From UHGV virus genome UHGV-0106067: a stretch of DNA of 62,562 nt, one strand, 5' to 3'. How positions within the stretch are numbered: position 1 is the first letter of the stretch; each line of letters opens with the position of its first letter. The notes below the pieces were generated by a model. That model made no database searches. It had not been told where the DNA came from and saw nothing but the letters and a program-made list of their open reading frames with translations. The translations under genes and the position numbers were made by a program. Positions 59,648 to 62,562 of the stretch are shown in pieces. The DNA comes from a virus.

Positions 59648-60446
59648 CCAGTCTCCCCGAATTACTCATTTCATGCAGCGATGACACGATGTCACTGACA
59701 GGCGTAACAACGCCCCGACGCTGGCTGGTCAGAATATCGGTTTCCGCTCTGAGTTTATCTCTGGCGGCGTTGATTCTTTCCCGGTCAGCACGAAGTTTTG
59801 GTGCTGTTTCCGCCAGAACGTCCAGCGTCAGCAATGAGCGTTCAATTGACTCGATACGGGCAATATTCCGGTCAAGAGCCTGTTCGGCTTTAAGTATTTT
59901 GTCGTACAGGGCAACACGGGTTTCCACGTCAGCCGCCTCTTTCAGGTCGGCGAACATTTTTTTCAGTGTTCCTGTTACTGAAAGTGCGCGGGCACGGGTG
60001 AACACCAGTTCATCGAACAGCACCATATCGGACGCATCATCCATGAGGTTATCTGCCTCAAGATACTTCGCATATCCACGGTGTCTCACGGCGTGGGTGT
60101 TACGGTCGCTAAACCGGGCAACGGGGTGAGGATTGCCCGATCTGCTGTTGCGTTTCGTTTCTGCCGAATTTGCGCAGTTTTTTTCAGAATTTTTTGCGCA
60201 TTTTTCATCGTCGGAACCCGCGTCATTGCTGGGTTCTTCATCTGAGATGTCATGATCGATTTCATGATCGATTTCATGATCGGTTTTATGATCGATTTCA
60301 TGATCGATTTTGCCCATTTTTATACGGGTTCTGGCGGTGTTGTAATTAATCTTTTTCTTACGGCACCACTCCAGTAATGTTATTCCCGTTTCGGCATGTT
60401 CGCGTCGGAATGCCTGCTCCAGTTTTTTCCAGTCCAGCTTTGCCAT
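59628..60446 (-). CDS. terminase small subunit-like protein containing (IDHE)n repeat
   Basis: 272-aa ORF upstream of and overlapping terL. Confidence 0.5.
   Translation of the reverse strand: MAKLDWKKLEQAFRREHAETGITLLEWCRKKKINYNTARTRIKMGKIDHEIDHKTDHEIDHEIDHDISDEEPSNDAGSDDEKCAKNSEKNCANSAETKRNSRSGNPHPVARFSDRNTHAVRHRGYAKYLEADNLMDDASDMVLFDELVFTRARALSVTGTLKKMFADLKEAADVETRVALYDKILKAEQALDRNIARIESIERSLLTLDVLAETAPKLRADRERINAARDKLRAETDILTSQRRGVVTPVSDIVSSLHEMSNSGRLDDIPEE
60251..60310. repeat. 12-bp tandem repeat x5 (atgatcgatttc) inside terS coding region
   Basis: read directly; encodes IDHEIDHKTDHEIDHEIDHD. Confidence 0.9.
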
Positions 60447-60747
60447 GTCACTTTCTGACGTCCTCTGTTAAAAACTGACGCATAATGACCGCTGTGATTT
60501 TTCAGAATTCACACAGCAGCGTCTTGTTTGATTGATATTTACACAATATGGTTGTTTTATCCGGTTTCTTCCACCACCGCACCGGACAGGCGGCCATGCG
60601 GGAAAACGCTCACGTTACCTGAAAACGTGGAAAGCCCGGTGTGCATCGTTTTTGATTATCCCCACACACTCGCGCAGGAGGTCCAGTGTCTGGCTGAGGT
60701 CTCTGTTAATGCGGGAATACTGCGACGATACGGCGCATCAGCAAAAC

Positions 60748-61215
60748 TTATTTCAGGCACTGAGTGCGGATATATTCCTGTGCCCCTTCCAGCTGCTTCT
60801 GCATCATCATCAACCGCTCTCTGAGGGTGAAATAATCCCGTTCAGCGGTGTCTGCCAGTCGGGGGCCGGTTGCATTATCCATGCCGGAGGTGCCGGTGGC
60901 TTCACGCACGGTACCGGAGCAGGTGGCGTTGATCCGCAGGCGCTTACGACCAGCAGCAACATCAGCACGCAGAGTTTCATTTTCAGCTCTCGCATCGGCT
61001 AATTCCCTCGAGTATTTTGCATCGAGCGCAGCAACATCGCGCTGGCGCACCTGCATATCAGTAATGGTGGCGTTTGCCAGCTCCAGCTCTCTGGCTTTTT
61101 TATCGCGCTGCGCTTTGTAGGTGATGGCGTTATCGCGGTAATGGTCTGTTGCCAGCCACAGCGCACCACAGCCACCCGCCAGGACAATAATCACCACACA
61201 CAGAACACGGCTCAT
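60748..61215 (-). CDS. Rz: Rz i-spanin
   Basis: N-terminal TM, coiled-coil periplasmic domain; contains embedded Rz1 frame. Confidence 0.75.
60810..60995 (-). CDS. Rz1: Rz1 o-spanin lipoprotein, embedded in Rz in +1 frame
   Basis: lipobox LLLVVSAC then Pro-rich [17 protein letters not shown]; likely start at internal Met (60980). Confidence 0.65.
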
Positions 61216-61222
61216 CTCTCTT

Positions 61223-61354
61223 TCACCCCACCAGTCCCGATAACGTCAGGACTCGCCAGGCGGTGGAAAAGAAAATGGCAACCAGCATTAGTGAAAATGA
61301 AATGCCGACAATTACACAGAGGATCTTCGCCAGCGTTATGAGTTTGTCTGACAT
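61223..61354 (-). CDS. small single-TM membrane protein between endolysin and Rz
   Basis: 43-aa [46 protein letters not shown] with SD agggagga. Confidence 0.4.
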
Positions 61355-61368
61355 GCTTAATCCTCCCT

Positions 61369-61551
61369 TCACGATTTCAACGCAATGACCAGTTTTGCCA
61401 GCCCATACAGCATCGGGGACACAGCAACACCGACCGCCACCCACTTAATGGCAAAAGCCAGTGCTCTGCTGATGTCATCAGTTACAGGCGCTTTCAGTTC
61501 AAGGCCGTTTTTCATAGTCAACCTCAACAGAATTCGTTTATACTTTTCCAT
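61369..61551 (-). CDS. small hypothetical protein with C-terminal hydrophobic segment
   Basis: 60-aa ORF MEKYKRILLRL... with SD aagggag. Confidence 0.35.
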   Translation of the reverse strand: MEKYKRILLRLTMKNGLELKAPVTDDISRALAFAIKWVAVGVAVSPMLYGLAKLVIALKS

Positions 61552-61707
61552 GTTCTCCCTTGCCTTATCCAAGGTCAGAAACACAAAACCCCGCTTGCAG
61601 CCAACAAACGGGGTTTTTACTTTTATTCACTTAGTTTTTGTCAGTTCGCAGGATTTCGTGTTATCCGTCCGTGTGAGCAAACCGCATTTTTCAGCAAAAT
61701 ATTCTGC

Positions 61708-62241
61708 TTATCTGTCAATTCCCCAGCACGCCAGCGCGCTCTCCTGGTCACGCCGCGATACCTGCCCGTAACAGTTATTTGAGCGATTCCGACAGTCCCT
61801 GCCGCCGTCATATATCCATCGGCGGATTTCAGCACATGCACCTTTCCGGTCTCCGGCGTTCAGTTTCCGGTAAAACGTTGAGGTGAAGCATTTCGAAGGC
61901 CCGATGTTGTACGGACAGAATGACGCGATGCCCGCTTTCTGCGGTTCAGTCAGTGGCACTCTGATGTTTTTCTCCACCCATGCCAGCGCCTTATCACGTT
62001 CAATGGCATTAACCTGAGCGCATTTTTCCTTCGACAACTTCATGCCCGGGACGACAGGTTTGCCATCCACCATGATGGCACCACGGCAGATGGTCCAGAT
62101 CCCCGCACCATCACGGTATGCCGTGGTGTGGTTACCTTCTTTTTCGTCAAGAAACTGGTCGAGGATTTCAGGCGCAGAAGCACCTGTGGCAATCAGCGCC
62201 AGAACGGCTACCGATAAACCATAGTGGAGTTTCCTGCTCAT
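61708..62241 (-). CDS. R: SAR endolysin (lysozyme R, phage-21 type)
   Basis: N-terminal signal-anchor-release segment then E-x8-D-x5-T (EGNHTTAYRDGAGIWT); matches recalled Stx-phage R. Confidence 0.85.
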   Translation of the reverse strand: MSRKLHYGLSVAVLALIATGASAPEILDQFLDEKEGNHTTAYRDGAGIWTICRGAIMVDGKPVVPGMKLSKEKCAQVNAIERDKALAWVEKNIRVPLTEPQKAGIASFCPYNIGPSKCFTSTFYRKLNAGDRKGACAEIRRWIYDGGRDCRNRSNNCYGQVSRRDQESALACWGIDR

Positions 62242-62245
62242 CAGC

Positions 62246-62461
62246 TTACTCTCCCCGCGCAGCTTTGCGCCGGTCTTCTTTAATCTTGAAATACAGATTC
62301 GTCAGGTATGTCAGGAACCCCAGACACAGGCTCCCCAAAACCCCGATAGCAGCCCACTGTGACGGAGTAACCTGATCCAACCACTGTAGAAACCAGTAAC
62401 CCGCACTGCCCGCAGAAGTACCATAGGCTATGCCCGTTGATATTTTTTCCATCTGATACAT
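62246..62461 (-). CDS. S: class II pinholin (S21-like) with dual-start motif
   Basis: [31 protein letters not shown]... matches recalled S21; Met1 and Met4 starts. Confidence 0.8.
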
Positions 62462-62492
62462 ATCCCCGCCCCGACAGACCTGTGCTACCGGA

Positions 62493-62526
62493 AATAAAAA
62501 AGGCCATCAGTGTTTTACTGATGGCC
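62493..62526 (-). terminator. intrinsic terminator 32 bp upstream of S
   Basis: ggccatcag-taaaaca-ctgatggcc followed on minus strand by tttttt. Confidence 0.55.
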
Positions 62527-62562
62527 CTGCCCCGCCGTTACAGCATTGTGCCCGGTTCGGGT

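Follow-up and report, generated by a model that had tools for sequence, protein, structure and literature searches.

The usual description of a lambdoid lysis cassette contains a holin, an endolysin and the spanins only. In the window (the whole stretch of 62,562 nt that was analysed), two small open reading frames, ORF-A and ORF-B, lie between the endolysin gene and Rz. The question is whether these are genes, and what such genes might do inside a lysis cassette.

ORF-A and ORF-B are genuine genes

The lysis genes are encoded by the minus strand at the end of the window, and the small and large terminase genes are located downstream of Rz/Rz1. The features are:

62461..62246, minus strand: holin, 71 aa (PF04971, E 5e-35), S21-type class II (pinholin family)
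62241..61708, minus strand: lysozyme R, 177 aa, GH24 (PF00959), SAR-type
61618..61707, minus strand: spacer of 90 nt, lysozyme stop to hairpin
61585..61617, minus strand: terminator-like hairpin found by the hairpin scan; left edge of the mobile module
61552..61584, minus strand: ORF-A leader, 33 nt, with the Shine-Dalgarno (SD) string aagggag
61551..61369, minus strand: ORF-A, 60 aa; ATG at 61551, stop at 61371..61369
61513..61525, minus strand: possible internal start of ORF-A; GAGG at 61525..61522, Met13 ATG at 61515..61513; 48-aa form
61368..61361, minus strand: SD of ORF-B, AGGGAGGA, directly 3' of the ORF-A stop codon
61354..61223, minus strand: ORF-B, 43 aa; ATG at 61354, stop at 61225..61223
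61216..61222, minus strand: spacer aagagag, 7 nt from the ORF-B stop to the Rz ATG
61215..60748, minus strand: Rz i-spanin (PF03245)
60995..60810, minus strand: Rz1 o-spanin, inside Rz (PF06085)

The interval from the lysozyme gene to Rz is 492 nt. The holin itself has a dual start (MYQMEK...); the N-terminus of lysozyme R is weakly hydrophobic and G/A-rich, and its translation contains the motif E35-8-D44-5-T50. At the edge of the window (62500-62528, minus strand), a second terminator-like hairpin lies a short way upstream of the holin gene; the late-promoter terminator of lambdoid phages has this position. Rfam gave no match for this hairpin. In related prophages, Pas sRNA genes were reported between the esterase and holin genes (2026 preprint). 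The small terminase gene contains a 12-nt tandem repeat GATTTCATGATC at 60246-60310 (5.4 copies, 90% matches), which encodes the acidic (I/T)DHE repeat IDHEIDHKTDHEIDHEIDHD.

An earlier reading of the letters alone (the sequence-only reading) had placed two small ORFs with good ribosome-binding sites between endolysin and Rz. Its coordinates and both SD strings were exact (aagggag for A, AGGGAGGA for B), and the ORF track indeed mis-starts both frames, as 71 aa from a GTG and as 73 aa from a GTG inside ORF-A. In an E. coli chromosome with identical DNA, the PGAP CDSs are exactly 60 and 43 aa, labelled as hypothetical proteins (RefSeq WP_021566721.1 for A and WP_001280930.1 for B). Both proteins matched PHROG families over their full length: A with phrog_1115 (residues 1-60, E 1.4e-42) and B with phrog_4906 (residues 1-43, E 2.5e-27). 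These families have no assigned function, and they were the only families in which A and B could be placed. Homologues, all unnamed, were found in E. coli, E. marmotae, Salmonella, Shigella, Citrobacter and Cronobacter; the closest isolated phage is PhiR12_3 (PV340552; 99.8% identity). Of 5426 complete E. coli genomes, 1786 (about a third) contained the hairpin+A DNA and 1257 (about a quarter) the B DNA.

Purifying selection acts in the annotated frame. The dN/dS was 0.23 for A (36 unique sequences) and 0.30 for B (28 unique sequences), and ranged from 0.63 to 2.5 in the two other frames; the variable sites of A per codon position were 15/6/36. Among related loci from IMG/VR, no copy was disrupted (0/167 for A, 0/145 for B). 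The PGAP CDSs, the PHROG matches, the homologues, the intact copies and the in-frame purifying selection thus establish ORF-A and ORF-B as genes. The genes themselves are already catalogued and uncharacterised. No model of Pfam, NCBIfam or PADLOC matched A or B (E <= 1), and PADLOC also gave no defence-system match for three sister mini-genes at the same threshold. A profile search of 1.84 billion representatives returned only 17 clusters and thus no informative remote homologues; A was not found in the GTDB representative genomes (one per species). No paper on the function of A or B was found in the literature on R-Rz interval genes, Stx lysis cassettes and prophage sRNAs (AsxR, AgvB, Pas). 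The Pas sRNAs are located upstream of the holin, not in the A/B slot.

Both products are single-TM proteins. The A protein has a basic N-terminal segment, MEKYKRILLRLTMKNGLELKAPVTDD, with 8 K/R ahead of the helix, followed by a C-terminal TM helix (best hydrophobic 19-mer, residues 38-56). It ends with ALKS, 4 residues past the TM, with a net charge of +1. The AlphaFold (AF2) model predicts a helix at residues 2-15, a loop, and a helix at residues 22-59 (mean pLDDT 76). The basic N-terminus and the C-terminal hydrophobic helix ending in ALKS suggest that A could be tail-anchored with an N-in topology. In the B protein, a single TM helix (residues 11-29, mean Kyte-Doolittle 2.9) occupies the centre and the flanks are short; 14 residues follow the TM, and the C-terminus has a net charge of +1. 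The sequence-only reading, which described the 43-aa ORF as single-TM, was right about B, but the TM helix is not limited to B. Both the helix and the soluble motif YKRIL.RLTMKNGLxVDAPVT are conserved in A relatives of about 50% identity, and this conservation argues for a specific protein function over mere hydrophobicity.

A might be made from two starts. Met13, with GAGG 7 nt upstream, is kept in every A relative (GAGA in 2 of 55 unique sequences); the upstream start varies among relatives and may be ATG, GTG, TTG or absent. The 48-aa form is the choice of many gene callers. Since the 12-codon extension stays in frame and its changes are conservative, it is probably translated where an upstream start exists. 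We infer from these patterns that a long basic form and a short form could both be produced. In two A variants (L085 and L146), an 8-codon leader ORF (MCREVYSL* and MDMEIFRE*, respectively) is inserted past the usual SD and lengthens the gap between hairpin and A. It lies about 30 nt upstream of the A start, and its stop overlaps or abuts the GTG of A; the layout suggests termination-reinitiation.

Hairpin-led mini-gene arrays and the pairing of B

The hairpin before A has the form AAAACCCCGTTTG-loop-CAAGCGGGGTTTT; since an A-run precedes it and a T-run follows it, it could act in either direction. Its stem is of the type CCCCG...CGGGG and lies about 33-35 nt before the A start in most contexts. 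It is present whatever lies upstream, including GH24, GH108, M15, Ig-like protein and tail-fibre genes, and the sequence upstream of it is context-specific. The 90-nt spacer (61618..61707) accompanies the lysozyme R type, not ORF-A: it recurs after R in Stx2a phages having an antirepressor gene (ant) instead of A, and the sequence at its position differs behind GH108, M15 and other upstream genes. The inner stem differs by lineage with complementarity kept (TTTG/CAAG, CTG/CAG, ACG/CGT, GTG/CAC), and double changes occur in 4 of 8 predicted hairpin pairs. The 101-nt stretch containing the hairpin of the window had a fold z of -4.3. The first mini-gene of array-type loci, whichever it is, has the hairpin before it; at one prophage end (L197), each successive cassette is preceded by such a hairpin. 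The ant-carrying phages have a different hairpin behind the same R-proximal spacer. The hairpin is read as an intrinsic terminator or insulator, which might also serve as a joint for cassette exchange. The Rfam search of 60400..62562 on both strands gave sub-threshold, terminator-shaped hits (rimP leader, BTnc005), which were rejected as family matches.

The A leader is about 90% conserved between cassette types, and a weak second stem (CCUUG/CAAGG) in the leader partly covers the A SD in the predicted fold. The promoter scan found no sigma70-like site on the coding strand from the hairpin to A, so the expression of A and B should depend on the late transcript. The only candidate for a sense promoter picked by eye in the leader or the R-hairpin spacer (CTGACA-19-TAAAAA) has a poor spacer and was not reported by the scan; it was rejected. 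The sole sigma70-like match in the region is on the plus strand at 61515..61544 (TAGTCA-18-TATACT, 9/12), and 1 match was found vs 1.6 expected in shuffles.

To describe the contexts, 120 distinct A-bearing loci were sorted by their neighbours; the counts refer to full-length architectures, and the remainder are loci truncated at one end. The architecture of the window (S21 holin, GH24 R, A, B, Rz) accounted for 58 loci. A further 28 loci had Phage_holin_8 (+ Phage_holin_3_7), a GH108+PG_binding_3 endolysin, A, B and a 60-aa lipoprotein, and 10 loci had S, R, sm50, an A C-terminal variant, sm49, sm57 and Rz. Rarer loci contained a Peptidase_M15_4 endolysin, or a second GH24 lysozyme with 37% identity to R. 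Three unrelated holin sets occur with A, the third being a putative one: in L085, a holin-like gene of 90 aa lies ahead of the lysozyme. A fifth endolysin type (PG_binding_1, phrog_181) was seen with a distant A relative, which lies behind it and ahead of two small lipoproteins on a contig with sheath and tube genes. The shared plan is an endolysin, a hairpin, one to four variable single-TM mini-genes, and then Rz/Rz1 or a lipoprotein, and this plan is independent of the holin and endolysin type. The sequence-only reading had looked to S21-type cassettes for conservation; it is found there, but is not specific to them.

The mini-genes are exchanged within the array. Sister mini-genes of 50 aa (MQVKDNNKTF...), 49 aa (MIKAETT...) and 57 aa occupy the slot in L133, L129, L142 and L084 (e.g. 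L133:2814-3363). The helix of the 57-aa sister gene, FIRATAFAIRLVAVAVLVWAIRWW, looks like a paralogue of the A helix, and several relatives end with RWW. Natural fusions were observed in P0094, P0107 and P0112, joining a B-like N-terminus to the A C-terminus, or the sm49 N-terminus to the A helix; recombinant forms such as P0094 and P0107 point to frequent recombination within the array. The junction between holin and lysozyme also accepts inserts, because a DUF1327/YdfR-family gene (with an antisense DUF1823 ORF) lies there in relatives (L001:1203-1544, L003:1320-2037). In Cronobacter-labelled prophages (L281-L284:241-1359), heat-labile enterotoxin type II-like A (PF01375) and B (PF06453) subunit genes are immediately upstream of the holin, which is the position of the stx genes in Stx phages.

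ORF-B is more strictly placed. It is directly upstream of Rz in all of the best 80 B loci, preceded by A or the antirepressor gene. In all 68 distinct B loci, Rz or the lipoprotein starts -4 to +12 nt from the B stop; for the 60-aa lipoprotein the spacing is 4-5 nt. B was present in 276 phage records vs 299 records with an Rz at least 80% identical to that of the window; lambda-type Rz (60-80% identical) adjoins R without an intervening gene. The Rz SD in the window is weak (aagagag, immediately before the ATG), and together with the tight spacing this makes it likely that Rz is translationally coupled to B. Stx2a phages and BP-4795 have the 189-aa ant gene in place of the hairpin and A while B is kept, and the B start overlaps the ant stop; B is often unannotated in Stx phage records. 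In these loci (L187:1150-2141, L280:947-1932), the R spacer is followed by the different terminator-like hairpin, GGCACCGTAATGGTGCC with a T-run, and then by ant and B. The slot is empty in lambda-type cassettes, in line with the description of an interrupted cassette in the sequence-only reading; it also takes cargo unrelated to lysis. As for absence or disruption in close relatives, which had been named as evidence against a lysis role, A is absent from the Stx2a phages, but B is present there and neither was ever disrupted.

A lipoprotein of 60-72 aa (MxRKHWTHR...LVGC, phrog_7528, three Cys in the mature part) replaces Rz/Rz1 directly after B in cassettes with GH108 or M15 endolysins (L089, L097, L129, L130, L282 and L285; e.g. 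L285:3140-3322). No Rz-like i-spanin was found within about 3 kb in these cassettes. In L210 the lipoprotein follows Rz (S-R-A-B-Rz-LP). A or B as a minimal i-spanin partner of the lipoprotein was rejected on geometry, because the residues outside the TM are too few.

Distant A relatives were also found outside complete cassettes. In a decayed prophage (L191-L193:3001-3601), a 49-aa relative that has the Met13 form only, with no upstream start, directly precedes Rz. The prophage adjoins an IS110 transposase, the chromosomes carry sopD, and the protein occurs in 1647 collection blocks. Three other distant relatives have no recognisable adjoining lysis genes: two are the last gene behind tail-fibre genes at a prophage end, and one is upstream of a tape-measure-like gene. 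Since distant relatives are also at tail-fibre ends, A is not strictly tied to lysis. What is new in this locus is the modular hairpin-led array, the possible dual start of A, and the fixed pairing of B with Rz or the lipoprotein, which is shared by most Stx phages.

Possible role in lysis and alternative explanations

The reading that we prefer, with confidence somewhat short of even, is that A and B are late-expressed accessory proteins of the inner membrane which take part in the lysis step. We infer late expression, membrane insertion, the topology, the B-Rz coupling and a lysis-related function as its parts, and they might be joined as follows. Read-through of terminators by Q-modified polymerase is established lambda biology, and Q-modified late transcription would read through the terminator-like hairpin behind the lysozyme gene. 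A would be translated from its own SD, possibly from both Met1 and Met13, and B from the strong SD that starts directly after the A stop. Rz, with a poor SD 7 nt past the B stop, would be translated via coupling to B. A would insert N-in by its C-terminal helix, and B by its central helix. In the inner membrane, the two proteins may tune when or how the envelope is breached, as accessory and not essential lysis proteins. The absence of a coding-strand promoter from the hairpin to A and the packing with Rz suggest that A and B are made late and sent to the inner membrane; this expected late expression and the repeated placement after five endolysin types make an accessory lysis role the best-supported reading.

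Several findings speak against a lysis role. A and B are not bound to one holin, endolysin or spanin type and have no obvious partner; the slot of Stx phages holds an antirepressor gene, which is cargo unrelated to lysis; distant A relatives are found at tail-fibre ends and adjacent to a tape-measure-like gene; and lambda-type cassettes function without such genes. The sequence-only reading had proposed an accessory lysis-timing or membrane function from position. The link with lysis cassettes is real, spanning five endolysin types, and makes such a function a candidate by position. Its two specific suggestions are not favoured. An antiholin-like regulator for S21 is disfavoured because A and B show no holin specificity: they occur equally with Phage_holin_8 + Phage_holin_3_7 and with the soluble GH108 and M15 endolysins. 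The spanin accessory finds no spanin-family match, and the proteins do not have the build of a spanin; their geometry excludes a spanin role.

A bolder form of the preferred reading is unlikely. It holds that A, B and their sisters are unrecognised, holin-independent modulators of lysis timing or envelope breach, exchanged by way of the hairpin among enterobacterial prophages. B would then influence the timing of Shiga toxin release, because it lies directly before Rz in most Stx phages; most of the 276 B-carrying phage records are Stx-converting phages. If A and B do alter lysis timing, they would have a bearing on burst size and on toxin release by STEC. If they are exclusion or lysogen-benefit genes, the slot would mark a new hot spot for such cargo.

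The latter possibility is the main alternative, and we consider it doubtful but worth weighing. A, B and the sisters might be moron-type cargo, namely small envelope proteins which benefit the lysogen or phage (e.g. by superinfection exclusion) and have no part in lysis. Such cargo would occupy a junction of the late operon that is permissive for recombination. Their patchy presence among close relatives, in a slot common to the antirepressor gene, would fit this, as would the combinatorial shuffling of the mini-genes and their occurrence as fusions. A relatives occupy a classic site of morons, last behind the tail fibres at the ends of prophages; hairpins punctuate the successive cassettes in L197; other junctions of the cassette take inserts, e.g. 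DUF1327 between S and R; and an A-like gene is retained in the decayed prophage remnant (1647 collection blocks). However, no promoter was detected before A, and the only hairpin is upstream, not downstream, which gives no sign of expression in the lysogen. B was always next to Rz or the lipoprotein, and the spacing is tight. A PADLOC match is absent for A and B, and five independent endolysin associations are hard to explain by chance placement.

It is improbable that the locus is a type I toxin-like cassette, in which an RNA of about 75 nt on the plus strand, from near the A start codon to the hairpin, would mask the A SD, and a membrane-toxic peptide would be made only when late transcription outruns the antisense RNA. 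The layout resembles that of the sar RNA of phage P22. In favour of this, the bidirectional hairpin has a fixed distance to A in every context, also in those without a recognisable adjoining lysis gene. The only sigma70-like match (plus strand, 61515..61544) is placed to start an RNA at the A ATG, but at 9/12 it is not above shuffles. Most divergent lineages have a -10-like hexamer (TATACT or TATAAT), and codons 4-6 and 10-13 of A show almost no synonymous change, whereas later codons do change; however, the hexamers overlap conserved codons and the Met13 SD, which could explain the conservation. Although A is small and hydrophobic, neither a type I toxin model nor an Rfam entry was matched. 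Moreover, type I loci are free-standing, whereas A is packed tightly with B and Rz, and the first gene past the hairpin is sometimes another mini-gene.

Very improbable, in our judgement, is an unconventional outer-membrane-disruption set formed by the mini-proteins with the 60-aa lipoprotein, which in the window would be accessory to Rz/Rz1. The GH108/M15 cassettes do have the order A-B-lipoprotein with no Rz-like gene within 3 kb, B is 4-5 nt from the lipoprotein, and two small lipoproteins lie behind a distant A relative. However, on the non-basic side no more than about 14 residues of either protein lie outside the membrane, far too few to span the periplasm; the S-R-A-B-Rz-LP locus indicates that the lipoprotein is not simply a substitute for Rz; and Rz/Rz1 is complete in the window. 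It is hardly credible that the two ORFs arose by chance or are dead remnants without a protein product: they are very short and have no domain match, but selection is purifying in the annotated frame only, all copies are intact, the SD sites are strong, and relatives at about 50% identity keep MKNGLxVDAPVT.

Comparison with known systems

Returning to the preferred reading of accessory lysis proteins, A and B were compared with the known classes. They showed no sequence relation to holins or antiholins, with no lysis match in Pfam, NCBIfam or PHROG (E <= 1), and they do not go with one consistent holin type (S21-type; Phage_holin_8 + Phage_holin_3_7; the 90-aa holin-like gene of L085). They have a TM as holins do, but no charged hydrophilic tail (net +1 each) and no holin family match. 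Neither has the N-terminal TM plus long periplasmic coiled coil of an i-spanin type, nor a lipobox. Both are hydrophobic single-TM peptides, but no type I toxin model was matched. Variable presence, a feature of morons, was seen; no promoter was found, and the hairpin is upstream of A.

By build, the nearest analogues may be the dual-start antiholins, the Mu releasin and the lambdoid morons (bor, HK97 gp15). Dual-start holin/antiholin pairs reportedly include S107/S105 of lambda and S71/S68 of phage 21. They resemble A in having two candidate in-frame starts, of which the longer form adds a basic N-terminal extension. However, their starts are 2-3 codons apart, compared with 12 in A, and they have a charged C-terminal tail; A is without such a tail and has no holin family match.

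Lambda bor, lom and HK97 gp15 are morons or exclusion genes of lambdoid phages. Like A and B, these genes encode small envelope proteins, are patchy, and are found at late-operon junctions and behind tail fibres. The classic morons have their own promoter and a downstream terminator; whereas no promoter was found for A and B, the hairpin is upstream, and B is tight to Rz.

The 'releasin' gp25 of phage Mu is described as a small membrane protein of a SAR-endolysin cassette which acts at the membrane step (PMC9239132). A and B differ from it in that they also accompany the soluble GH108 and M15 endolysins, which makes a SAR-specific role for A and B unlikely.

By position, the nearest analogue might be lysA of phage P2. 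This gene for a membrane protein is reportedly located between the endolysin gene K and the spanin genes lysB/lysC, and its mutants are said to shift lysis timing slightly. No sequence similarity of LysA to A or B was shown, and A and B matched no lysis family of Pfam or PHROG. LysA is larger with several TM segments, whereas A and B are single-TM proteins of a shuffled array. Nevertheless, LysA and the A/B proteins share the slot past the endolysin and before the spanin, and each could be a non-essential membrane protein and candidate modulator of lysis timing.
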